NCBI GenBank assembly: GCA_051294905.1
Contig: CM119372.1
Coordinates: forward strand, 30,072,001 to 30,136,000
DNA length: 64,000 bases
DNA from: Botryllus schlosseri
Lineage: Eukaryota
Reading direction: 5' to 3'
Part shown: positions 1 to 47,057 of the stretch, in pieces
Numbering within the stretch: the first letter of the stretch is position 1
How the letters are laid out: the number at the start of each line of letters is the position of its first letter
Program-made: the position numbers and the translations under genes
The notes under the pieces: model-generated
What the model saw: the letters and a program-made list of their open reading frames with translations, nothing else
Databases searched by the model: none
What the model was told of the DNA's origin: nothing

Positions 1-1149
1 TAAACGCTCAAGTCTATTAATGATCTTGATTTGGTAGAATAGGGACACTTGATATCTGTCAATACACACATTACAAAAGTGCCGCAAACATGTCCTAAAA
101 CTACTTTAAAAAATATAACACTCCGGCAAGTATGCAATATTACATAGTACTCTGAAAAGGTGGAAATACTATCTTCTTTACTTTCATTCAGTGTGCATGC
201 CTCCTCTTTACATCGCCTAGGTCAAGATGGGTGTCTGATTCCATAGACTAGTCCAAGTCGCTTCGACATCTTCCTGTCTTTTCATTGTATCGCATTTTGT
301 GGTGTATTGAACTGATAAAATTTCTAATAAACCAATGATGATGATGATGATCGTCTGTTTGCACCACGACATAAATGCTTTAAAGTTCAAGGGTCTCTTT
401 GCTTTTTGATAAGCTTTTTCTTTCTTTCATCTCTTGCTTGCTTCCATACGTCCTCGTCAGTGGTGCCGATTTTCGAGCCTCATCGGCTTTACTTAGCCAT
501 CTGGGCTTGATTACATGACGCTGCTCATGTAGTTAGGTAAGCAGTGGGGAGTCCAGATAAGCCTCCAACCCACTTGCGTCAAGTGGGATTCGAACTCAAT
601 TCCAACGCTTCCCCAATCTTTCAGGTAATTTTGCAGTTACCCACCTCTACGTCATAAACTTTCATTATACTCATGGCTGAACTGAATATTTCCCAATTCT
701 TTGCCATCACCACCATACATTGCTGATATTGGATGGTCGTTGTCTAAATCATTTTGACTTCTTTTGACCAGATTCGGATTATTTTTGAAGAACTCGCAAA
801 TCGTAAAAGTAGCCTAACCCAATCCATCTGAAATCAAATTTAACACGGTACGGTAATGTTACAATATTAATAATCTCCGATGTTGACTGATCACTGTCTC
901 CGTGTCGATAAGTATATACTTGATGCATAATAATGCTGCAGCCATACGATGAATAGTTAGTAGGTCCAGATGAAAGTACTAAACCTTGGAATTACTTGTT
1001 TGAAATAGGCTATCTTAAACTGCTCTATACTCCATCATGTTAATTGAATACTATACATTGTCATCTATCTGCACGAAAAAAAATCAATCCTGTAACACAA
1101 ACACATAATGTGACAGCAAAGACCAGCGCAGTAGCAGAAATTGCGACAC

Positions 1150-1700
1150 ACAAATGCATTACTGTCGCAGAGAAGATGATACCAGAAACGCGCTTGGCCC
1201 CAGACGGTGGTTGCTATGCTGAAAAGTCACGTGACTTTCGAGCCCAATACTCGACCTTGATAACGAAATTGCTGCCCGAATCATTGAGTACCAACCTTGA
1301 GACTTGGCACAGCGTTCGATACTAAAATAAAGATACCATGCAAAAGCTCATGACGGATCTAGCTAAGGAGCATCGTTAAAATCAATGGAGACCAATACCG
1401 GCTTTTGCGTAAAATCTGTTTGCGATACATGACGGATCAGCACACACTCAACTTCGGAATCGGATTTACTACCCTAAACTTTGAGTAGAAACCCTAAAAC
1501 TTAGGACAGTGTTAAATACCACCATCACGACATGACATACCAAGTTTCAAAAATTATCATGGAGTGAAACACCATCAAAATCAAACTATACCAGCAAAGA
1601 TCGACTCAACGCATATGACGGTAACCGAGTTCAGATATAGATACGATTGTTACATCACACCTTAAGGGCAACTAGGCTATGTTGCCCCGGCTGCTCGGTA
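1150..1700 (+). mobile_element. Possible very old Gypsy gag/protease relic
   Basis: Fragmentary translations DLDNEIAARII...TMQKLMTDLAKE and KDRLNAYDGNRVQI resemble Gypsy gag and protease-flap segments. Many stops and frameshifts. Confidence 0.3.
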
Positions 1701-1967
1701 ATTTTATGAATAGGAGAGAGTAAATCACCGTTTCTTTATTGTGCGCGACGTTGAGAGAATAGACAGTGAAAGCTTGTTATGAGCGCTACCGGGGCATGCC
1801 CCGGCTAGGCATTCGCAAAGCGATAACACGCTCTGATTTCGGTATATATAGATTGCTGTGCGTCTATAAATGGTAAAGAATTGTTATTAAACAGAATTTT
1901 AGGTGGGGCAATGCCCCAGTTGCCCTATAGGACGAGCCGCCACTGATCAATATTAGAAATAGCATAT

Positions 1968-2150
1968 GTTGAAGAAATTGCTGAGAATCTGATGGTCATA
2001 CAAGAAACCATACTTTGCAAACAATGCGAGAATAATAGGAGCGAAATTACCCTGATCCCCCGTGGACATCTGGGTCTGTGTCAAGAATGTTCGTCCGATG
2101 CTGAGCGCTGCATATTCTGCTATGGGAAATATCGCAAAAGATCAAAGTGT
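1968..2150 (+). pseudogene. IAP/BIRC-type C3HC4 RING finger relic
   Basis: VEEIAENLMVIQETILCKQCENNRSEITLIPRGHLGLCQECSSDAERCIFC has IAP-RING spacing (C-x2-C-x11-[C>R]-GH-x3-C-x2-C-x6-C-x2-C). The third ligand is CGT (Arg) instead of TGT. No BIR exons were seen. Confidence 0.6.
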
Positions 2151-3066
2151 ATGGAGCTTGACGGTGCAGGCAAGACAAACGTGTTTCTGTCTATTGGACT
2201 GGTAACAAGGTAGTACTGTGTAATGACGCTTTAGTTCGCTTTAATATGTTCAAATACTGTAATCGCTATGTTCTTGATTATTACTATCAGGAAGCTTTAA
2301 ATGGCGCTAACATTTTCATGCCCTGAACATAGTTGAGAGTTAATGAACGTTTATTATGTGGATAGTCAGTTGTCGCTGCGTAATTGCATTTGTGGTTGAT
2401 TGAGGATGAGGTCATATTATTACGTATAAAATCATTGCGTGACGTACTTGATATCTGAAGGATAAGACTAGTATGTGTATTGTTGTTGACACGTATATTT
2501 GGTTCGCCGTTTAATCAAGTACCATATGATTAAGATATATTTGCTTGTTTTGTGTTAACCGTATTGATGTTAAACTATTATTAATAGTGCATGACGATAA
2601 CGGGGTTTGACAAAGCGAGACTTGTGACTAACTGCTATAAATGTAAATAGCTGGGCCCTGTAGGGATAACTAGGGTATTTACGTAAACACCAGTACTTGT
2701 CCTTGACATGTTGTTCAATGTCATAAGTAACTAAAATAAATACCCCTCCCTATAATAACGTCACAGATTCTTTACAAAGTCAAACCTGTTACAATGAGTG
2801 TTTATAATAATCTCTGTTGTACCGTCTCGTACAGTGAGGCGTTATAACCGACCACGCCTTATGTTAGTGTCGGGACCCTCCACCCTAACGGGATAGAAGT
2901 TTAGGATTCGTGGTAAATCAGATCTATGGTCTGTGAGACACGGTACATACGAATGAATAAAAAGCTTGAAACACCAGTACCATCGAACCCAGAGATATAG
3001 TAGATTGTGATCAAAATACTATTGTAATTGAGTGTTGTGTAATGACACAATATTTCATGAATGAAT

Positions 3067-3176
3067 TTTTCGGCAGGATAGGCCGTCACATGAATTATAT
3101 GTGCAAACCAACCTTGGAGCTGCTTTTCGGCAGGACAGGCCGTCGCATGAATTATATGCGTAAACAAACCTTGGAG
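3067..3176 (+). repeat. Tandem repeat, 57-bp period x2
   Basis: TTTTCGGCAGGAYAGGCCGTCRCATGAATTATATG...AACCTTGGAG at 3067-3119 and 3124-3176. Confidence 0.9.
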
Positions 3177-3553
3177 TATTGAAAACGTTTAATATTCGTG
3201 CATGTTGATGAATAGGTTTAGATAAAACTTGTAATATAATTGAAGCATGTTTACCAATTTTATCAGGTTTTACTCATAGAAACCTCATTCCACTTTGCAT
3301 GGTTATGATTGGAGTATTTGGTTGTATTAAGGTCTAGTTTACTAGTTGTACCAGATTGGTTTAAAGTTCTGGACCTGGAGGTCATTGTCTGATTGGATCC
3401 AGCTGCTGCTACCCTTATCACTGCTTCGATCACCATTTGTGGATGCTACAAGGTCACAACATCAACACAGATAAGGAAAACCAACACTGTGAAGTAAAAT
3501 CGAACCAAGTGTGGACTCTCGCAGTAACAAGCGTTGCTGGAGCTGCACTATAA

Positions 3554-4633
3554 TAGGGTTGCCATACGTCCGGAATTTCCCGGACATGTCCGGAATTTCG
3601 CTGAAAAAAATGCGTCCGGGAGGAAATTCTAAAATATGCCAAAATGTCCGGAATTTTGGAGGCTTGAAGTAGGCTCAAAAGTTTTTCGTAAATCAATATG
3701 AACAATATTATTCTCAATCAGATTTATGCTATTCGAATTTTTTTTTCACGCTGCGCGCGAGTTGATGCCACTTACGTTGATGTTAGTATGGGCACCAGGC
3801 TCCGTCCTCGCAAAAAATGAAATCAAAAATAAATAAATAACCACCAGATACTGAAATAAGTCTCATTGTAATCGTAATTGTAAGCTAACGGTATATTCCT
3901 GGAGTTGGTTAAGGCCGATTGGATGCTTCAGTCACAGACATTGGTTCCAAATCTTGGGGTCCTTTGCTTTTATCTGGGGATCGCGAAGATGTTGGATGTA
4001 ATCAGCTTCAAGAATACGCCGTGAGTAGGTTTGGAAAAGTTGAAATTTTTTTGTAATCAGTTTATCAAGTTTTGAGCTGGGCCAAAATGTTGTAGTTCAC
4101 CAGATGTGCAACCTGCTGGTGCTTTTTATAGGAGCCTAATACATGGAAGAATCAATATCATTGACAGAATTCATTCATAAAATGTAACAACCAGATGCAT
4201 ATAGTAAGTGCCCAAGCAGTTACATCGATTACCATATGGTGGGCCCAAGATCAGTGCTTTTGTGGGCGGAAGGGGGCAGAAAAAATGTTTTTTCGGACCT
4301 AGTTAAAACACACAACTAGATAGCCGCACCGACCTAACAGTATAGCAGGGCTGTCAAACACAATCCCGACACGCCAGACACGGCCCGGGTGACGATTTCA
4401 TCTGGCCCGTGAAGAAATTTATTGCGGACCCAAGCAAGTAGCAATCACCGAGCTCACATTACAGATGGCCCTATTCATGACCCATGTTCCCTCCATCCCT
4501 TTATACAGTCGATGAACAATGCGTTGCTAGTGTGACGTCATATTGGCAGACAATGTGTTATACCCCATTTTAAATCTGCTAGTGGGCGCTAAAGAGTGTC
4601 CGGAATTTGCTTCACAAAAATATGGTAACCCTA
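3554..4633. mobile_element. Non-autonomous hAT-type element inserted upstream of gag
   Basis: TIRs TAGGGTTGCCATA / TATGGTAACCCTA. Perfect 8-bp TSD CACTATAA at 3546-3553 and 4634-4641. Subterminal GTCCGGAATTT repeats. Confidence 0.9.
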
Positions 4634-5085
4634 CACTATAAACGTATTGGAGGCACCAAGCTGGGATTATTACTTCTGGTGTAGCACGTTGACCTATAAA
4701 TGTGTTCAAAGACGACCATCGTTAAAACTGCATTGTGGCCCTGATTGCGTCTGTAATTTCATTGTTAGTTACGTTGTCACCAGTATATCTACATTTGGTA
4801 CCGGGGTTTTCTTCAACTACAGTTCCGATTGGAAACGGAAGACCTAACAACGGAGTTACAACACCGTCCCCAACTCTTATTGGCTCGCAAAACATATCTA
4901 CAGGAAGCCAATTTATCATTACTAAAGACTCGCTATCTAAACTTCTGGAGTTGGAGACTAACGACCACAACTCATCACTCGGAACAACATCGTGGCCTAC
5001 CTTGGACGACCCGACCATCTCCAGCGTAAAGCGGGCCCTCGAAAACTCTACTACGGGTCTATAAATCGAATCTATTGTTATTGCC

Positions 5086-7997
5086 ATGCGAAGAATATTG
5101 AAACTATTTAAAAAGAAGAAATCAACGGCGGCATCGGCGGAGCTAAAGCAGGGAATCCGACTGCTTAAATATACCCAAAAGCGTCACGAAGATGTGCGAG
5201 ACCAAGAGAGGCAACTTGCTAAAGATGTGGCCGACCAGACAAGAGTCCTAAAGGAGTTCAAAACGACCCTGCCCGAGGCAGTGAAGGTGCTGGAAAAAGC
5301 AAGAAAAGACGTCCGGCGGGCTCAAGCTGACCTGAAGGCCGTTTGTGACGCCACTTCAAAAATTACTGGAAAAGTTTCCACAGACGTATTAAACGAAATC
5401 TTGCAGACAGAATTCAAGTTGGGTAACGCCCATGCGCAAGCGGTAGTAGACAAACAGCATCCTCCTCACGCCCTGACTGTCATGCCCACAGCACCTACTC
5501 CGGCCTATGATCCACCAGCTATCCGGATGGTCAGGGAGACTCAGCCTATGCCCACCTTCACCGTGAAAAAGGGGTTTGATTATCATACAGTAACGGCGGT
5601 CTACCCTACGCACCCAGACGTGAAGACTGATGCCCCATCTCGACCGACACCGGTTGCCCATTCACTGATGGCTCCAACCTTTAGAACAAAAGGGAATATG
5701 CATCCCGCGATGAAGACCAAAGGTGCTGCGAACACGCCCATGGCATATTGGACACCTAAGGGAATGGCGGCAGGCGAACCAATGAGAATGGACAGCGGCA
5801 CGGACTCCGAATTGGACAGTGAACATCTCCCCACATTCCGGAAACTGGTGTCGAGACCTCGAGATGCAAAGAGTCAGCAACGGGACAGTGACAAGTTGGG
5901 TGATGTTGGGACACGAAGTAGTCGGGCAGGAAACTCACCGAACGACGCTAAACACGTCACTTTTCATGGAGAAAGGGAGGAGTATGATGAAGGAGACTCG
6001 GAGGCTCAATCAGAAGATTCTGATTCTGAAAGGGCGACGACATCCGGACTGCAGAGGCTTGTACAACAAATGGAATCCGCACAGGACACCCTCCAGGAAG
6101 CTACTCGAAATGCTTTCCTTAGAGATAGTGGCGCTTCCCGAGAAATTCTCCGTGGTCCTGAGTATTACGATGCGGGCTATCTTCCAAATGGCCGGGGAAA
6201 TCCTGGAATGCCGCGTTTTGCATCTACTCCAGATGCCAGTGATGATGGCCGCCCAATTCAGCCGCGCTCGCGACAAATGGAGGTAATAGTAAACCCAACG
6301 CTAACTACACCTGCTAGATTTCAGTCCGAAAAGGAAATGATACAGTTGATAATGGATCCGGGGGACATGCCTCTTCTCAAATGGATGGAGAACACAATGA
6401 GACGGTGAAGGTAATACTGATGCTGATATAATATTGATGAATGCAATGCAGAAGAAATTGAAGAATGCTGGGCGTTACAAACAAGCTGATCAACTTGGAA
6501 ACTTCTTCAACACAAACTCGGGAAACGCCAGTTGGGAATCCGTTATGAGGTCACTATCACTTTCCAACCCGCAAGGAATTGTGAACAATGAAAAAATTAT
6601 CAACGATTTCCGAAGAACGTATCATTGGGAAGATGAACCCCTACCCCTACTTAACAGCGCCCTGAAACAACTGGAGATAGATATGGACGACCTAGTGTTT
6701 GGCAATCCGGACGGACTGCGACTTTTCCGCAATTTGAGACAGCAGCTGCCGGAAGCCCTCAGGTTGTTAATAAGGGGATGGGAAGAAAACAGCTGGCGGA
6801 AAGTCGCAGAAGAACTCCAACTGTTCTGGAACTCGGAATTCCAAGATGAACAGGAATCGAGTCCGACGATTCAGAGAACCCGAAGAACGCAGAAGAACGC
6901 GAGTCACCCTTGCCGCCTGTACATATCTATAATGTACAGCCCGCTGGGCCTGTGATACATAGCTATCCCACTCACCCTAACGGAGATGGACAACTGGGAG
7001 TACCTCCGGAGCCTACCTTATCTTCTTCACATCCTCCGCCCGAATTCGAGGCAACGCCACCTCGACCTCCCAGAGTGGTCCCTTTACGGCCTCTTGTGAT
7101 TACAGGACAGGTTTCACAACTACGCCGAAATCCTGTTCGCAACGCAAGATTAAACCGGTCCCCTACTAACGTATCGATAGGTATCGGGCCAGGCAGACGA
7201 GCGCAAACTTCTAGGAGACAAAGCGCCTCTGCTGGACCCGATACCCAGCCTCTACATATTTCAGGGTCAGCACAATCCGGTCAACAACCAGGAACTTCAA
7301 GCCAAAGAAGCCCACGAACGGAAGGAACACAGGATTCTGGAGTGGGACCAGATAATACGCAAATCACTCCGTCAAACAGTCAGGAGGCTCGCCACATCGC
7401 GGAAAGCCAAGGTGAGAGGTACAATTTCCTTGGAAATGCTAATATCTTTGCCTCATTAGGCTTGTATTTGAATCCTTCCCAGGGCCAGGCCCTTTCGGTA
7501 TGTTATTACTGTAAGGCCCCCGGGCATCAATCCCGGAATTGCGTTGCCAAGTTTATCCTTTGGCTAAACAATGAGGTACTCACTAGAGATAGCGAATTGG
7601 GATGGATAATCCGTAAACGTGTACGACCGGTGCCGCAGCGTGTTAAGGAATCTGCTGAACGCAACTGGCGTCCGTTCCCTACTACCCATGGATTATCGAC
7701 TACCCCAGATCTTGACCGGTATCTCATATCACATGGTTCTCCCTCGTTAGCAGAAAGAACAAATCTATGCGAGGCCTATTATAATAGTAGAACTAGAACC
7801 CGAGATAAAACCACTGGCAAGACAGGGACCAATGGGGCCCCAGGGGACCACCCGCGAATCCAATTCCTAATAACGGCCAGGTAGACTGGGTTGCGCCTTC
7901 ATATAGACAAGAGCCGCGTCAATACGCCGCCTCTTACTGGACAGATGAGGAATTAGAACAAGGCTTACGCGTGTCAAAAAACGGTTGGGGGCGCTGA
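5086..7997 (+). pseudogene. gag: Gag polyprotein (~970 codons) broken by three frameshifts (~6400, ~6910, ~7806)
   Basis: ORFs 5086-6408, 6401-6955, 6910-7884 and 7809-7997 overlap consecutively. N-terminal coiled-coil, capsid-like segment (KWMEN...ASWESVMRSL...WRKVAEELQLFW) and zinc knuckle CYYCKAPGHQSRNC at 7501-7542. Confidence 0.75.
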
Positions 7998-8020
7998 TTG
8001 ATCCGGTAAATCAGCTCCCA
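7976..8020 (+). promoter_or_regulatory. -1 programmed ribosomal frameshift signal (gag to pro-pol)
   Basis: A_AAA_AAC at 7976-7982 is in the gag reading frame, and a -1 slip enters the protease frame. Downstream hairpin: GCTGATT 7993-7999 pairs with AATCAGC 8009-8015, and TGGGG 7986-7990 with TCCCA 8016-8020. The gag TGA lies at 7995-7997. Confidence 0.8.
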
Positions 8021-8618
8021 GAGACAATATTACCCCAACATGTTAAAATTGTACATAATGCCTCGTTACCTTTGTTTACATTCCTTGATGCACTGGAAAA
8101 CCCCCTACAACCGAATTTCACGGAATTATTCGGTGGACAACTTTTATACTTAGTGGATACCAAAACAGGCACCAAATTCCTAGCCGATACGGGCAGTATC
8201 CCCAATTTGATTATGAAAAGCGTAGTAAAAAATAAATATCCGAAATGCTGGGCTGAACGACAGCCACTTGATATGAAATTGCGCGGAATAGGAGGCTCGT
8301 CCCGAGTCGACTCCTTAGTGATAGTACCTCTTGACGGACTGCAAGTTCCATTTGCAACTGGCAAGAGAGTTCCTCTTAATATTGTGGGGCTAAAATGGAT
8401 TGATAAAGTACAACAATTACCGAGTATAGATACTGAATTTAAAACTCCGTCTACTGATAATGAAGAATTATCATTGGCAACACTACATAGTATGACTTTA
8501 CGCGATAAAAAGGACGGAACCAGAATTGGAAACAGTCCTTGCAAAACTGTGACCAAGAATGGGTTGGTGAAAGCTGCAGAACAGCAGAGCGTCGAGACGG
8601 CAACGGCCGCTGGCGCTG

Positions 8619-9015
8619 GCGTCGAAGTGGCAAGGGCTGCTGACGCAAACGTTGGGTCGGTAAACACCGCTGACGTTACGATAGAAAAGAGAGACTCTTT
8701 GGGTGCCGAGCAAGGAAGGCCTGCTGACACCTGCCAAAATCGCGCCGAGCGAGGAAGTCCCGCTGACGCAAATAGAGTTCACACTAATCAAGGAGGCTCC
8801 AATGATGTAGGCAATATCAGCGTCGAGTTGGCAAGGGCCGCTGACGCAAACGTTGGGTCGGTTAACACCGCTGGCGTTACAAGAAATCAAATAGACTCTT
8901 TAGGTGCCGAGCAAGGAAGTCCTGCTGACACCAGTCTAATTCGTGCCGAGCGAGGAAGTCCCGCTGACGCGAATGGGGGTCAAACTAATCAAGCAGACCC
9001 CGAGGATGTAGGCAA
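8619..9015 (+). repeat. Tandem duplication, 201-bp (67-aa) unit x2, inside pol
   Basis: VE(V/L)ARAADANVGSVNTA...DSLGAEQG.PADT...RAERGSPADAN....NQ....DVG occurs twice, starting at 8619 and 8820. Confidence 0.95.
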
Positions 9016-11339
9016 AGCTGTTTGTCCAGATGACGGTAATGCATCAGTGCGGAATGATCCCACGACAGCCGCCGTCATGCCTACTTCACTCGACAATAGT
9101 TCCAACGCAGCTACTACTCATTTTCCGGATATGAGTCCGGAGGAGACTAAAGAGGAGTCTGGAGATTTTAGTATGCAAGTCTCTCCAGAACAAGGGCCCC
9201 CGTCGGATCAAAGTTCCGGCGGCGTGACGTTAGGCGTGGGCACGCGCCGAGATCAGAGGTTAACACGAATAGGTAGGGAAGTACCGCTGACGAAAAAAAA
9301 CCTCGCCCTCTCCCCACCAACTGCAAAACCCCGATTATCGCATAAGCTAAACAGAAGGATGAACGGTCTGGTAACCACGTACGTTCTACAAGAGGGAACC
9401 AGTTCTGAGGTAAATACTGACCTTGAGGTCCTGCGCCCACAATCAATTGAGCTAGCGAAATTACCATATAAGCCCCTTGATTTGACTACGCCAGAAAATA
9501 CCATTATCGCCGACAACGTATGGTCGGAGGTCTATAAACCTTTTGCGATTGAGCTGGAAGATCTGCGATGCCATCTTAGCACGCCCCAATCTATGAAGTA
9601 CAAGTGCGACATCGAACTAAAAGACCCGTCAACTAAGCCATTTGTCTCTGGTCGCTATAATATGAAAGGGGAAAGCCAGACCAAAGGTTTACAAGCAGCT
9701 ATACCCTTGTGGTCAGCAAATATGGAGTCATGCGTGACGAAGCCAATAACGGAGAAGTACCAGCAGCACATAAAAGAACATGGCCAGGCTGATGGGAAAA
9801 ATACAATACCTATGGATGCCAACATTTCTCTCAGCGCAAAGACGGCCGAAGATAACTTACTCCTCTTACGAGTTGGGTTTAAAATAAAGGAAGTGATTTA
9901 TCTCAGCACGATGCAAGCATTCACGTCAGATGGATTGTACCGATCCTATTGGATAGAAATGGCGGCAGAAGATGACGATCCCCGTGCTGCTAATCCGAAA
10001 AGGGAAGAAGTAACCCATATTTTGAGTGAATCTCAACAAGTAAGAGTACAACGAATATTGATGTACCATTACCGGCATGCAGAGTGCTAAGACTCGACAA
10101 ATGGATACCGCCCATGGGAAAACATCCATGCGATTGTACAAGGCAAACTGAAATTAAATTTTGAAATGACCGAAATAAAAGACACCTTGATAAGTTGCGA
10201 TAGGGCTGTAGTCACGACCTACGGTTTGGCCGCGGCACACCGACATACGAAAGGGTCGACTCCCCCCTACAAGGAGCACGGAGGTGACGGTATGCTATGT
10301 CACATGGCGACTGAATTGAACGCAAAAGTTCTAATGAATGAGGGGATCAAAAGGATGAACAGAAAGTTTGTTCATCCTAGCAAGTCAAAGACGACAAAGA
10401 TGCTTGGCCGGAAGATTGTTATCAGCATGAATGCGGCGGACCTGAAGACTGAAGGGGTGAAATTGCTACAATCTCCAAATCCCGATGTTGTGCTGTGTAC
10501 AGGGCCAATACCGGTGAAATGAGTGCAATTGGGAAATTGAAAATACTGCAGGGGGTCCGTCATGTGTTCACAAAATGATTGTGTTGAACTTTCAGGAATT
10601 TGGCTGCACAATGAATTCAAACGGACAAAACCTAAAACGCGTAACTAGAAATATGCTGAATCAGCAGGAGTGCACTTAATACGAGAGAATAATTGATAGT
10701 AAAAAAGGGGATTCATGTTGGAGTGTTTCACATGAAAGAAATCGATTTTTTCATGGGGAAACATGAAATGGGACGTGTTGCACATGTTCCGGGAAATCAG
10801 GTGTATAGTATATGTGGTCCAAAAGTTTGATGCATAAAAAATGGAAAAAAGATCTTGCAAAAATTTACATGAAAAATCGAAAAAAGTAGATGAAATATCG
10901 ATAAAGTTGAAAAAAATTATCTTAAAAATTGGACAAAAGTAGCAAAAAGATGCACTATAGTATTCCTCTCAACAGCCTGAAACACCATACTACATAACTT
11001 CTGAGTATTTAGAAAGCTGCCGGAAGCTGTAAAAAAAGTTGCAAAAGTCGCAAAAACTTGCCCTAGTGATAAACCAAACTTCGACCTCCAGACCCACCCA
11101 CCAGGATATGCGAAAATTTTACATAATTTATGATTGAATCGGTCAATAATATCGGGAATTGCATATATATTGCTATAATATTTTATCCTCTCTCTGCCCT
11201 CGTATTCAGATTTACCGGTAGAGCTAAGTGAGGTGTTGTCTTGGAAAATGTAGGCCCGTTATTAATAACTATTCGGGCGGGCCCGTTGGTATAATGACTT
11301 CGTTGCATGATGTTATATCGTAAACTCCTGTTAGGTGTG

Positions 11340-11624: not shown

Positions 11625-14501
11625 GCTATGTCAAAAGATATTGAAATCGTCCAAACGTACTAAACTAACAGACGCACACGATTTCAAATCGGTATTTCTT
11701 CACTGGCTAATAATTTTTCTCTGTGGAATAGCATTTGTGGGGTTCAGATTGCCAGGACAGGAACATTCGGCGCTAGCCATTTAGGCCCATAACGAAGTTT
11801 TCGGTCAGCATAAGTGCCGTCCTTTACGGCCAAGGTATTCCAGCTACCGATCGTTCTGGCACACCTCTCAGAGTCGCATGTTTCAAGGCCTGAACCTTCA
11901 TATGTCTTGGTGCGGTAATGGCCGACGTCGAATTGCCCATATGTATATATATAAATCAATTGAGGGGGGTTTGGGGTGCGGCAGTTACGGTCCTGTGTAC
12001 TATACTGTTAACACATGGCAATACCGGTCACTTGCAGTTTTCCTGAAAAAAAAATCTATCGCATTTAATCTTCATAGTCATGACCTGACACTAACTTTTA
12101 GTTAGAGTAGTTGGTGCTTTAAAATAATGCTTCCTATCTGATACCCGATCTGATAACCTGCTTACCAGGTTAGCATTCCTCAGATGTAGTGTTTTCATCT
12201 ATTTTGAAAATGAATTAAATTATTCAGAAATGACCCGGGAATAGTATGCGCTTAGTTGGCCTTCCTTTGATAGTCATTGGTATTTTATTTCCGTCTCTAC
12301 GACCCCAGAGAATAAGCAAACGACCCCATTGCGGTCACGGCAGCAATTTATCTCGACGGCGTTACAGCCATTGCTATGCTTGGACATGAAATTAACCACG
12401 GAAACGTTGCACCTATAGAAGCCTGTAATATAAAAGAAAGATATCAATAGTCCCTGTCTAGCAGTCGAGTTTTTTAGGCCTAGTTTTCGATAAAAACCGA
12501 AAAACTTAAACCGCTACTTACTTTAGTAAGTATGGTTTCGCCAAAAAACTGTTAAAATTGAAGAGAAAGATAGTCTAAAACAGAGGTTCTCAAACTGGAG
12601 AGGGGATTCGCGACTCTTGAAGGACGTGAAAGCATCTGAGGAGAGGCGCGTAGCCGCCAGACAGAAATGATGTTTCTTGATGTAGCTCAGTGGGCCACAT
12701 GGGAATTTCGAGGTGGGCCATATGGGCATTTTGATATGAGCCATAGGGGTATGTTGAGGTAGGCCACAGAGCTATTTGTATAATTGTGTATTTAGTCAAA
12801 GATTAGGAATATTTGTTGTTCCATAAACTCAAAACATATATTCATATTATCGAATTTTTAAGCCGACTCTGAGCAGATGTAATGACACGTATGGAGGTAG
12901 GCTACATGTACATGTCGAAAAGGGGAGGGCGACACGGCGTATTTTGAACCCCGGCTACGCCTATGATCAAAAGCTAATAGCAACTAAAATAAGTTCGATT
13001 ATATAATAAATGGACCTTACTTCTGAAGTAATCAAGTATTCCTGCAGGGTCAAATATCGTATGCCGTTCAAAAGGGTGTGTCTTAAACTCGGAGTGTACT
13101 TGTTGCAGATATATGGTATCTTCCGCAGATCGTATAATATTGTAACATCAAAATAGTCTTAATTGCAATTTATTATCAATTATCAACTTGAAGTGTACGG
13201 CACTAGGACAACGAATCGTAATGGATTGAGTATTTAGAGCGGTGCATAAATCTTTGGAGTCGATCTAAAATGTCCGGCCTTGAAATCATTGTACATAATG
13301 TAAGAATCGCATGAATTTTTTGTGTCATTGGATTGAATGTTTTGACATTGAAACTTCAGTAGGTACAAGACATACGCACAGCTTGCATCATAGAAATTCG
13401 TTATTACTTCGCTGTAGTATCCCATTAACAGAAATCACGTTGAGAATTGTTTGAAGCCGGCCGAAAATCGTTTCGCTACCACAGTTATATTTATTCCTCA
13501 CCATAGTGGAACTTCGTGGATGCGGGGATTGGATCATTGTGTTTCGTTACGTGCGTGGAACAGTGGGTGCCCATAATGTATACAAGAGCTATATGGGCTA
13601 CCACTGCCGTACTTGTCGCATCCTAAAATCCTCTAATTCGTGGGAGATCGAACAACCCCAAAATTACTACGTTAGTCGTTTTTTATAGAGGAGATTTATG
13701 CCATTGAAAAATTTATTGCCGCTTCACGTGATTTCGTGTCGCTGGGGGTATCGATTTTAATATGAATAACAAGAACAATGCGCATATTTTAGACAAATAA
13801 GGAATATTGGCGCCAACGAATACCACGCATTTAACTGGTCCGACTCTAGGCAAAGAGGTGAGCCACAGGACATTTTCCAATCGAAAAATAGGCCAAGGCT
13901 AAAAAAGGTTGAGAACCCCTGATTTAGTTTATGATCAGGTACGTTTGAGCTACGCTCAAGTAGGGTAATGGAAGGGTTAGGCACTAAAATAGCTAAGATA
14001 AATGAGCGACGTGCAACCATTGTGCATGATTTATCTTTAACAAAATGTTAAACTGGAAATCTACTCGCGATTTACTCCCAGCTCGTATTGATTGCTTTGT
14101 GTATAGTCCGAATTCCATATTTGAGAAGTGTGTCAATAGCCATAACACCCTCCATGCCAGCAAACAATGCATTGAGATTGCAAACATTCTGGTTGCTCCA
14201 TTAAATATTTTTTGACATGATAAGGGGGCCCAAAATTTTTCGCTATCATCAAGGAGTGTGTCGAAAAAAGCGTGAGAACCACTGGTCTGAAACATAACCA
14301 TATGAGCAACTATTACAAGCAGTAAAATCGACTTGAATACTCTACTAAAAATGCACAGTTTTGGGCGGGAAAAAATTGGATTAGAAGTACTCTAAAACGT
14401 AACATAAATAGTAGTGTAAGAGACAGGACAAATCCATTGGAGTGCTCTCAAAAAGTGCAAGTACTTCAAATGCTGTTGAAGCAATCCGTTGCTATCTCCA
14501 G

Positions 14502-14825
14502 AAAGCGCCCGATGACAAACTGCTCGTGTTCAACTGCAGAGAAGGTTGGCGACCTCTGTGCCACTTTTTGGAGGTCCCATTCCCACAGAAAGCTTCTCCT
14601 CACAAGAACGTGAAGGGGGAGGTGATCAAAGAGACCATGCGTCATCCTCTCGCATTAGTTTATCAGAAGGAGGTCTTCACGAGCATGATTGTTTTCGTCG
14701 TAAAGCTGGTCGTGGGATTGTCGTTGATGAATTATTTCAACGCAAATTTTGTATGCAACATATTTGTCGACTATGTTATACGTAGACGGCAGTGTTGGGA
14801 CAACAGGAGTCCACTTTTTCTCTGA
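14502..14825 (+). pseudogene. Orphan 3' exon of a Sulfotransfer_4-like (P-loop sulfotransferase family) gene with a C-terminal hydrophobic segment
   Basis: After acceptor ctccag the frame reads KAPDDKLLVFNCREGWRPLCHFLEVPFPQKASPHKN, matching the family C-terminal signature LL-x-F-x-x-x-EGW-x-PLC-x-FL...P-x-x-N. A hydrophobic stretch follows (VFTSMIVFVVKLVVGLSLM). The last codons run into a MITE starting at 14789. No upstream exons were recognised. Confidence 0.6.
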
Positions 14826-37031: not shown

Positions 37032-37645
37032 TAGGGCTGTTCAAAAATAACTTATTTTTCTGGATTCCAGTCGTTCAGTTATCAAATTGTCAGGTTACCC
37101 TAAAAAACGCTGCACACCAAATTTGGTTCAATTTTAACAAGTATAAGCTCCGCAGATCCAATTATTTTTTTAAATTTAAACGGAAAAATTAAAAATGAAA
37201 TTTTTCAAATTTTTCTGTCAACCCCTTGAAATTGTTGAGCTGTCTTCAGAGACGATGCAAAACAAATTTTACTCAATTCCAACTAGTAGAAGCGGAGTTA
37301 TTGGAGTTTTTCGTTGATATTTCTCGGATTATCTTTGATTGGTGGATAACCCGAGGATTATCAACGCAAAACTCCAATAACTCCGCTTCTACTAGTTAGA
37401 ATTGAGTCAAATTCGTCTTGCATCGTCTCTGAATACAGCTCAACAATTTCATGGGGTTGACAGAAAATTTGAAAACTTTTTTTTTAATTCTCCCATTTAA
37501 ATAAAAAAAATTAATTGGATCTGCGGAGCAATATACTTGTTAGAATTGAACCAAATTTGGTGTGCAGCGTTTTTAAGGGTAACCTGACAATTTAATGACT
37601 GAATGGCTGGAATCCAGAACAATAAGTTATTTTTGAACAGCCCTA
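37032..37645. mobile_element. Near-palindromic foldback MITE (~300-bp arms)
   Basis: TAGGGCTGTTCAAAAATAACTTATT... / ...AATAAGTTATTTTTGAACAGCCCTA. The arms match almost to the centre (~37340). Flanked by a GTACAT direct repeat. Confidence 0.9.
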
Positions 37646-43470: not shown

Positions 43471-46400
43471 TAGGGTTGTCCAAAATTTGAAAAATTTCGA
43501 AAATGCTGCGTTGTAATGTCTTATTCTATAGATTATTGATTAAAAACATCAACAAGCCTGAAAGAAGCTCTCAGGAACGTCGTTAAGATTTCTTACAAAG
43601 CGTTTGAAAGTAGCTGCCAAAGAGTGGGCGGGCCACCGACGGCGAAATTGCAACTAGGCGGGCAATGACGAAACCACGATTCTTGATTGGGTAATCGGTT
43701 ATGCTTCAATGATGACGGCGGCTGTCAGCTCTGATTTGGGTGCTTCACCGTGTTTGACAGAAGGAGTAGGTTTTGCTGCTGCTGAGTCTGTTGGTGACGG
43801 CTGTAATACTGTAAAAGCGTGTTGTGGTTTGATGAGTCAATAGTAGTAATGTAACACTTGTTCCTTGCTCAATGTTTTAGTTGCAGCAGCATTTTCTGTT
43901 CTGATGAGGTCGATTTTGTTAGTAGTGGTTGTGGTTATGTACAAGGGCATTGTGGGTTGGTGAGTTAATAGTCGTAATGTAACACTTGTTACTTAAATGT
44001 TTTAGGCGTAGCTGTAATTTATGATAGAAGGCAAAAATATTACTGTCATGGCAGAGGCAAAACGGCGGAAGACTGTGCACTTGCCACAGAGAAGAACAAG
44101 ATCTCGATCTGAGCATTACTTGGTCGGATATGCTTGCGATTACATCTGTGGCTCGAGATTACCAACCTTGCGAGAAGTAATGAGTTACTTTCTGCATCTG
44201 AAAGACCATTGCCCTCAGTCAACCCCTACTCGTGAGCTATGTAATGTGGTGGTTCATGATGTCATGACAGTGTGGCAAATGGCGAGAATTGCCACAATAC
44301 TTAAAGGAAATGCGGTGAAATTACTTGAAAAACTGAACAAAAAATATATTTTTCTGAAGGCGACCATGAAACGGGAAAGTGATCCCAAGGGTAAGAGGAA
44401 AAAATTCACGGAAGATTTGGACAAGTTGTGGGATAGGCCTATTGGAAGTACAGATGCGATAGCAATAATACAAAATGACATTTATCTATCACATGATAGA
44501 AAGCTCGAAGACATTGCATTCTATGAAGATCAACAGCAATCTCGCAAATGCATAATGTTGGGAAGAGACAAGATTCTCGCTTAAGACATCGAAAAGAAAA
44601 CAGCAACCGTGGCGGATAGAACTGTTAAAAACATTCAACATGACTCAAGTGATGACTATTTTGTTTTAGCATCTTCTTCATCTTCAAAAGAGGGTGATAG
44701 TTTGAGTTCAAGTTCTGATTATGATGCTGATGTTGGTCTTGGCACCTCGACAGCCATTAAGCTGATGGCACCTAAAAATATTATGAATAATACCCATGTG
44801 TCCCAAGCTCTGGATCGATTGCAAATAACAGACAACAAGGCAACAATGCTGATCGGAGCATTTATTACGGCTTGTGGCGGTGACATAGCAATGTTCTCTC
44901 TGTCAAGATCTTCGACAAAGAGAGCCAGGGAAACAAATCGTCTTGAAATTTCCAAGGATATTTCAGAAAAATTTGCAGAAAATAAACCTCAACATGTTGC
45001 TATTCATTGGGATGGAAAGCTCACAGAGGATAGATTAGGAAATCGGTATGAGGCTCTGTCAATTGTCCTATCTTGTCATCCTCAATACTCAGAAGGAAAA
45101 CTACTTGGCATTCAAAAGATGCAAAATGCTGCAGGTCAGACGCAAGCAGAAACCACTTTCAACATAATTGAAAGTTGGAATATAAAAGATGCTGTAACAG
45201 CTTTGGTTTTTGACACTACAGCAAGCAACAGCGGCTGGAAGAAGGGTGCGGCAAAGATTCTTGAAGACCTTCTAGGAAGGAAGGTGTTCTACCATGCATG
45301 TCGGCACCATGTGTATGAGCTGGTAGTGAAAGACGTTTGGAAATCTTTATTTGGAAAGGCCACAACTGGACCAGAGAATGCATGGTTTGCCCACCTTAAA
45401 AGGAACTGGAGCAGTCTTGACAGGGAACAGCAATTCAAGACTCTGACTATTCCTCTATGTTTTGCTGAACGAGCTGCAATGATAGTTGATAAGTTCAAGC
45501 TACTGTTGAACAGAAAGGATTTTTTCACACGGGATGACTACAAGCAATGTGTGACTAATGCTCTTGCTCTTCTCGGTGCAGATGAAGATATACGTCATCA
45601 CAAACCTGGTGCAGCACACCATGCGAGATGGATGGGTACAATTCTGTATGCTCAAAAGATGTTCATGTGGGCCGACCAATTAGATTACAAATCTGAAGAA
45701 GTTGAACTGCTGCGCCGCTTCAATTTATTTTTGGTTCTCTTTTATATCCCTGCGTGGGTGGATTCAAGCATTGGTCGTGATGCAGCTGGTAATGACTTGA
45801 GATTCGTTCAGCACATGTTGAGTTATAAGGAATATGATGAGCAAGTTTCCACAGCTGCTTCACGAAAGCTTTTGAAGCACGACTGGTATATTGTTGAGGA
45901 AACCGCTGTATACGCCTTGTTTTCACCGACGGAAAGCAAGGAAACCCGGGAAAATATGGCAAAGGCGCTCCTGCAAGTAGAGCGAACTTCCAGTTTCAGA
46001 AGGGGCCCACCCTCATTGAATGCAACTATACAGATCAACAAGGACAGTACGTTGTCTGACCTTATTGGGCCCCAGTCGTGGTACATATTTGAAGTTTTTG
46101 AATGCTCTGGGGATTGGCTGCGTCAACCGGTTGATGATTGGCACTTTTCAGATTCATTCAATAAAATGAATTGCTACGTTAGTTCTGTCAAAGTCGTTAA
46201 TGATGCCGCAGAAAGAGGTGTCAAGCTAAGCACAGACTATGCTGCAATCTTGACTGACAATGAACAGCAAAGAGACAGTTTGCTTCAAGCTGTGGAACAG
46301 CATAGGAAGATTTTTGGAGACAGCAGGAAGTCTACTCTTATCAAAGGCCAGTGATCTGCAACACTGACCCTGCGATATACTTTTTAATGATGCCTTTTGT

Positions 46401-47057
46401 AAATAGCATTTTTGCCTTTGTTAAATCTTGAATAAAAAGTGTAATATGCGTTCGTTTTAGAGAGAGACGTCGACTTACCGTAACAAGCCATAAGGAGAAA
46501 TTGACTACTGGTTTGCAATTTATGAGTTACAGTCGTTGTCAACTGGTATGTTTTAGAAGGCTCGAAGGTAGCACGATGCATGCATCTAGTTCATTCTTAT
46601 CTTAATTGGCCAAGCTCCTGTGCAAGAAGTAACAAAACTGTTATACACAGTGCTCAGGTAGAAAATATATTACTGGATCGTTATGCTGTTGTCGATGGCA
46701 GCATTAACAACGTCAATTTACCATATCGCCAATGCCACGAACAGAAATGGCTGCAAACCAACACAACAGAGTAGAACGAAATCGTGACCAGCAATGATCA
46801 CAAAATCAGTATTTCAGCCAATCAGTAGCTTATTATTACAGGTTCCAACCAATCAAAATTCTAGGTTCGTGATTGCCCGCCCACTTCATCGATTCCCCGC
46901 CCACATGCAGACGGCTACTTTCAAACGCTTTGTAAGAAATCTTAACGACGTTCCTGAGAGCTTCTTTCAGGCTTGTTGATGTTTTTAATCAATAATCTAT
47001 AGAATAAGACATTACAACGCAGCATTTTCGAAATTTTTCAAATTTTTGACAACCCTA
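43471..47057 (+). mobile_element. Full-length hAT-superfamily (hATm-like) DNA transposon
   Basis: 144-bp TIRs (43471-43614 and 46914-47057, one mismatch seen). Perfect 8-bp TSD GTACCCAA at 43463-43470 and 47058-47065. Internal transposase. Confidence 0.95.
44021..46354 (+). pseudogene. hAT (hATm-like) DDE transposase, ~777 codons, with one premature TAA at 44582-44584
   Basis: ORFs 44021-44584 and 44609-46354 are in the same frame. Motifs IHWDGK (D), VFDTTASNSG (D), ACRHH (CxxH), PGAAHHARWM and VVNDAAERGVK (E). Confidence 0.9.

Follow-up and report, generated by a model that had tools for sequence, protein, structure and literature searches.

A probable small gene for a predicted membrane protein directly upstream of gag in a retrovirus-like element of Botryllus schlosseri

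A 64,000-nucleotide (nt) stretch of the Botryllus schlosseri genome (assembly GCA_051294905.1, contig CM119372.1, positions 30,072,001 to 30,136,000), here called the window, contains a decayed retrovirus-like element in which a separate small gene of ~120 codons probably lies directly 5' of gag. This gene, broken by a frameshift in the window copy, would code for a type II membrane protein with a single pass, which the element likely uses as an accessory surface protein. The element is organized with a RING finger frame, the membrane open reading frame (ORF), gag, and a pol gene that ends in a Tpt1 domain and lacks an integrase; coordinates are those of the window, and genes are on the + strand unless noted otherwise. 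Accessory membrane proteins govern the exit of retroelements from one cell and their entry into another, and if the reading is right, the small gene is a further kind of membrane gene 5' of gag, distinct from the FAST type, that widens the known toolkit and adds evidence for enveloped particles in an integrase-less family with budding motifs. The finding removes the interpretation as a membrane-anchored, N-extended Gag (glyco-Gag). By itself the small gene is modest, and the surprise lies mostly in the surrounding element family. A small membrane gene of this topology seems to be undescribed in this family, and a literature search that covered few subscription journals and not Repbase listed no paper on the family, nor any on an ORF for a type II glycoprotein ahead of gag.

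Reading frame and predicted product of the small gene

The small gene starts with an ATG at 4700, immediately 3' of a TAA and in a weak context (T at -3 and T at +4), and in the window copy the frame of this ATG yields just 14 codons (4700-4744). The rest of the gene is a stop-free frame of 112 codons at 4726-5061 that contains no Met and is in frame with the gag ATG at 5086; it is closed by a TAA at 5062-5064, which is separated from the gag ATG by seven sense codons. This arrangement, with the upstream ATG one frame off, is as given in a preliminary description made from the letters of the sequence, but the open frame begins at 4726 rather than 4735. The description also proposed that repair of an indel would join the ATG at 4700 to the downstream frame, and other copies of the locus bear this out.

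Scans of metagenome, viral, and prokaryote genome collections, five in all, gave no related locus. Four of 24 listed public runs were compared with positions 4540-5560, namely the DNA runs X1 and X10 and the RNA runs X21 and X23. The frame break of the window copy (4733-4735) is bridged by one contig from X1 (depth 73.3/73.3) and by records 10 and 11 from X10 (18.6/18.6), and every one of these differs in length from the window and has the ATG at 4700 in one frame with the hydrophobic stretch, the frame being deduced by coordinate arithmetic. Since all of the bridging contigs are unbroken at ~4734, the break belongs to the window copy and is peculiar to it; read from its sequence, the gene is ~120 codons long in unbroken copies. 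A further contig, X10 record 13 (4798-5368), has 23 other letters and no gaps relative to the window; the small gene gains no stop from these letters, none of which fall in the TAA, the three glycosylation sequons, or the gag ATG; X1 record 3 (5027-5151) has no other letters. The TAA is thus kept in both of the contigs in which it is readable.

The 11 codons from the ATG to the frame break include two Lys and code for Cys as the second residue. They are followed by a 19-residue stretch without charge (4735-4791), with Kyte-Doolittle means of 2.23 to 2.47, which is predicted to form a membrane helix acting as a signal-anchor; the basic start and hydrophobic run of the preliminary description are therefore present. 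Among the 40 stop-to-stop frames of at least 100 amino acids (aa), the best 19-residue mean of 2.47 is equalled by one, which is this frame itself, and that level is reached in 2 of 277 window frames of at least 60 aa. Dinucleotide shuffles of 4642-5085 gave a comparable length in 81 of 2,000 cases and a comparable hydrophobicity in 5, and the two were combined in none. A single-sequence structure model has helix 2-19 as its best-predicted part, followed by a tail that is mostly coil with two low-confidence helices (hydrophobic moments 1.21 and 1.78). The flank ahead of the helix carries two Lys and the 15 residues behind it carry neither Lys nor Arg; by the positive-inside rule, under which the more positive flank stays in the cytosol, an N-in/C-out topology is predicted.

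The remaining 90 residues (4792-5061) form a Ser/Thr/Pro-rich tail that has 28 Ser plus Thr and lacks both Cys and a further hydrophobic stretch; beyond residue 30 of the small protein, Ser and Thr make up 32% of the residues. The three sequons that had been reported, NIS (4891), NSS (4969), and NST (5044), are all present, and N-glycosylation is therefore possible.

Proposed expression of the small gene and competing explanations

In the proposed topology, the two Lys ahead of the helix would remain cytosolic and the helix, escaping cleavage, would serve as a signal-anchor. The tail, rich in Ser and Thr, would pass into the lumen of the endoplasmic reticulum, acquire N- and O-linked sugars, and be carried to the cell surface. 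One RNA could serve both genes, with part of the ribosomes initiating at the weak ATG at 4700 and the remainder scanning to the better ATG of gag, which has G at -3 and C at +4 as opposed to T and T at 4700. The 383 nt that these ribosomes would cross (4703-5085) are free of ATG in all frames, and ATG is the only one of the 64 triplets that is absent; such an absence occurs in 18 of 3,000 shuffles and in 134 of 5,000 sequences under a codon-usage null. Leaky scanning over sequential ORFs is documented (PMC3542737). The ATG-free run and the succession of a weak and a better start likely reflect a leaky-scanning pattern, but a second promoter or splicing would explain them equally well. The basic amphipathic start of Gag and its late-domain motifs (see below) imply that a surface protein made together with it would meet Gag at the budding membrane. 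The small protein would sit where particles bud and, resembling a mucin, may help there with their release or attachment or shield them, rather than act as a fusogen.

A bolder proposal, which we regard as tentative, is that integrase-less, enveloped retrovirus-like elements of sea squirts, forming an undescribed family, have evolved their own small type II surface glycoprotein, translated along with Gag by leaky scanning. It would do a job like that of glyco-Gag or Nef-like accessory proteins, helping particles to be released, to attach, or to evade the defences of host membranes, and would represent an independent invention in an invertebrate chordate.

Several results weigh against a separate membrane protein gene read by leaky scanning. 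No relative of the small protein was found among 1.84 billion representatives, in a word search (8 candidates), or in the Atlas (recognition 1286, which is low), the last two covering lengths of 61-196 aa. At least three sequons occur in 3,343 of 10,000 tail shuffles, so that their count is not above chance, and sequons in the number expected from composition permit glycosylation and do not demonstrate it. One contig, X1 record 1 (depth 30.5/145.9), is shifted out of frame on its own at 4808. The readings of the ATG and TAA apply to the contigs named above, as 77 rows of differences, X1-only ones among them, are not listed. The small gene differs from X10 record 13 by 8 non-synonymous and 2 synonymous changes and so gives no sign of purifying selection; gag on the same contig serves as a control, with a ratio of 7 to 3, or 13 to 8 when every listed row is counted, and as this ratio is alike and the copies are close (4% apart) and decaying, the selection test is blind either way. 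In RNA runs X21 and X23, of which ~12 and ~3 in 100 reads were sampled, depth over the small gene and gag is 0 save for ~1 read in X23, and the reads are otherwise confined to the end of a hAT-like insert. Lastly, ATG-free gaps of at least 383 nt are found twice among 1,252 on the + strand of the window, the second being inside gag, and the context of the gag ATG falls short of "strong" as defined in PMC3542737.

Leaky scanning would be dispensable if the two genes were served by two internal promoters, an arrangement we consider rather unlikely. A TATAAA at 4637-4642 would then direct an RNA for the small gene, and another at 4695-4700 an RNA starting just 3' of the ATG at 4700, for which the small ORF would be merely the ATG-free 5' leader of gag; splicing onto that leader would be equivalent. 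The ATG-free run is accounted for equally well, both boxes are at fitting distances, and internal promoters are used by the tunicate Tor elements (PMC4402516). However, TATAAA occurs 34 times in the window, including a further copy at 5060-5065, so that the box at 4637 is a weak candidate, and the RNA runs, whose depth was almost nil, contain neither joints nor start sites. Splicing has a single weak acceptor-like site, at 4821.

The same gene could instead code for a small secreted glycopeptide, with the hydrophobic stretch a cleaved signal peptide, which is unlikely. Signal peptides, too, consist of a short basic start and a hydrophobic core behind it, and the tail has neither a second anchor nor Cys. 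The helix of 18-19 residues exceeds the usual length of a signal peptide h-region, however, and by the -3,-1 rule Pro occupies the likely cleavage places. These features of the sequence favour an anchor that stays uncleaved over a signal peptide that is removed.

It is decidedly unlikely that there is no gene at all, and that the region is a gag leader that is not translated, with a run of T-rich sequence that happens to read as hydrophobic. The lack of a detected homolog, of a selection signal, and of a sequon excess would fit such a leader, as would the second broken copy, with its frameshift at 4808. Against this stand the absence of the combined length and hydrophobicity from all 2,000 shuffles and the presence of an in-frame ATG at the right distance in other copies.

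The preliminary description had left the choice between a glyco-Gag and an accessory membrane ORF, and while the accessory ORF is supported, the glyco-Gag is not. Under the latter, the TAA would be a mutation of the window copy or would be read through, giving an extended, membrane-anchored Gag. The small frame is indeed in the gag frame and only seven sense codons away, and the predicted topology is type II, as in the glyco-Gag of murine leukemia virus (MLV; PMC3042739). The TAA is nevertheless unchanged in both readable contigs, its UAA-AUC context fits none of three readthrough types, and at the readthrough sites of animal viruses UAG or UGA is used and UAA is not (PMC13517186). RNA 3' of the TAA folds worse than shuffles (z +1.23 and +1.43), and none of the five stretches folded near either the start or the stop gave a structure (z 0.10 to 1.43). 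All four Gag relatives (P0001-P0004) begin at the gag Met, their starts being gene-caller predictions, and no extended form was seen among proteins of 738-2,105 aa or with a read-through query against the 1.84 billion representatives. A match of frame has a one-in-three chance, and a same-frame ORF just ahead of gag is also present in a bat betaretrovirus (PMC3621094). Finally, the upstream start is AUG and not CUG, and together these points make an extended Gag highly improbable.

A cell-cell fusogen of the sORF2/FAST type, although similarly small, with a single helix, and encoded on the sense strand upstream of gag (PMC11952523), can be virtually set aside, since FAST hallmarks are absent: there is no Gly2 myristoylation motif (the second residue is Cys), the helix is at the extreme N terminus with no basic patch behind it, the predicted topology is reversed, and at ~120 aa the protein is longer than the 63-107 aa of sORF2. 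For the amphipathic tail helix of such proteins, the two low-confidence helices of the model are candidates.

The host element and its relation to known systems

The window copy of the element is dead, with an insertion ahead of the small gene, breaks in gag, and deletions in pol. Its gag spans 5086-7950 and is in three pieces here (5086-6408, 6401-6955, and 6850-7884), with a basic amphipathic start, a coiled coil, a PTAP motif at 5485-5496, and a zinc knuckle at 7498-7542. Whole Gag relatives (P0001, P0002, and P0004) are 869-976 aa long, and the sole named relative is from Styela clava. The motifs PTAP, PPxY, and YPxL are budding signals, and motifs of this late-domain type are clustered at 5485-5613 (residues 132-199), with PTAP in the window, P0002, and P0004, and PPxY and YPxL in all three of the whole relatives. 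Gag relatives with identities as low as about 24-49% retain the cluster, of which PPxY and YPxL are degraded in the window. A structural search for a Gag capsid fold gave no match at E 0.001, using a low-confidence model (pLDDT 40). One further candidate, P0005, matched weakly (E 3.8e-04); it is an unrelated peptidase-like protein and is left out of all counts.

The pol remnant (7949-10522) contains one stop and a putative protease-like motif. It aligns to the whole Pol relative P0006 in three separate blocks, from which it follows that most of the reverse transcriptase (RT) and RNase H has been lost from the window copy. The domains of P0006 are RT, RNase H, and Tpt1, and it matches no integrase family. 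In both the window (10091-10522) and P0006, the end of Pol is a Tpt1/KptA-like RNA 2'-phosphotransferase domain in the usual place of the integrase; in the window the domain itself is at 10118-10501 (Pfam PTS_2-RNA, E 2.9e-05). The closest solved structure to the RT-RNase H of P0006 is that of Ty3 RT (E 1e-22), and PDB entry 8r0s, an "Enzymatic polyprotein" that we take to be a caulimovirus protein, scores nearly equally. Two 196-nt copies, 85% alike and 201 nt apart (in frame), lie at 8619-9015 within the lengthy linker of low complexity that joins protease to RT.

No pair of long terminal repeats (LTRs) is present among the direct-repeat families listed in the window (20 of 44), and the left end of the element is probably outside. 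A candidate right end, unproven, is at 10935-11063, where short A-rich repeats end in GCCC at ~11063; it has no partner end in the window. Another repeated element begins at ~11110, past this candidate end. Upstream, the remnant of an accessory gene is a RING finger frame at 1947-2213 (Pfam zf-C3HC4_3, E 3.3e-08), a C3HC4 finger that is presumably of the IAP type, and no BIR or any other domain was found in the six frames of 1-3552. At 217-426 on the - strand, a short frame with Met, one Lys, and a hydrophobic run resembles the beginning of the small gene in its build; the element may have here a further small gene for a membrane or secreted protein. The frame at 2970-3182 contains two imperfect copies of ~60 nt (3055-3180).

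The preliminary description placed the element in Ty3/Gypsy and called a membrane ORF 5' of gag unusual for that group; neither statement stands. Like Ty3/Gypsy elements (Metaviridae), including Tor of Oikopleura (PMC4402516), this element has a gag with a CCHC knuckle followed by pol, and P0006 points to a Ty3-type RT-RNase H. It differs in that Pol ends in Tpt1/KptA with no integrase, and it is therefore not an ordinary Gypsy; an LTR pair is also missing from the repeat families listed. In the Gypsy group itself, small transmembrane ORFs 5' of gag are described: sORF2 of Drosophila MDG1-group elements is a membrane protein with FAST features, with 105 hits from 29 organisms (PMC11952523). 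Extra ORFs are also reported in plant Tat elements (PMC4408406).

Like the small gene, sORF2 and the nackednavirus smORF2 are small single-pass membrane ORFs on the sense strand upstream of a capsid gene, sORF2 being on a retroelement (PMC11952523). The same article describes sORF2 as N-out/C-in, with a myristoylation motif (MGxxxS/T) and a juxtamembrane basic patch, whereas the small protein has an N-terminal helix, a predicted N-in/C-out topology, neither motif, and a Ser/Thr-rich tail. MLV glyco-Gag (gPr80gag) initiates at CUG, continues into Gag without a stop, and has 88 cytosolic and anchor residues (PMC3042739). It shares with the small gene a weak start upstream of the gag AUG and the type II topology and glycosylatable lumenal part that are predicted here. 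The small gene differs in starting at AUG, in having only about a dozen residues on the cytosolic side, and in the TAA ahead of gag, which its readable copies share. By analogy, the small gene would in its working be most like a free-standing glyco-Gag leader.

Separate accessory ORFs that end a few bases before the gag start, presumably on the same RNA, are found in walleye dermal sarcoma virus (WDSV), in which Orf C ends seven bases ahead of gag (PMC3185748), and in bat betaretroviruses, in which one of the ORFs ahead of gag is in the gag frame (PMC3621094). WDSV Orf C differs from the small protein in being mitochondrial and pro-apoptotic, with no membrane anchor reported in the parts of the source available, and both WDSV and the bat viruses are LTR retroviruses with integrase. 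As judged from its sequence, the small gene thus occupies a place common to known ORFs 5' of gag, yet has the distinguishing features of neither sORF2/FAST proteins nor glyco-Gag.

Insertion and other features of the window

A later insertion of 1,080 nt (3554-4633) is a non-autonomous DNA element with inverted ends alike at 13 of 16 positions, flanked by a target duplication of 8 bp without mismatch (3546-3553 and 4634-4641); the length of this duplication and the type of ends suggest that it is hAT-like. It ends 66 nt ahead of the ATG at 4700, and its right end is a high-copy repeat. The insertion hit the TATAAA ahead of the small gene, which is now part of the target duplication, and it may have cut the small gene off from its promoter.

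Elsewhere in the window, a frame at 14415-14825 resembles part of a host sulfotransferase-family gene. A large fold-back repeat at 37032-37645 has arms that are 88-94% complementary and 11 nt apart at the centre. A DNA transposon at 43471-47057 has 169-nt inverted ends (93%) and two long frames, 44018-44584 and 44585-46354, that are split by one stop.

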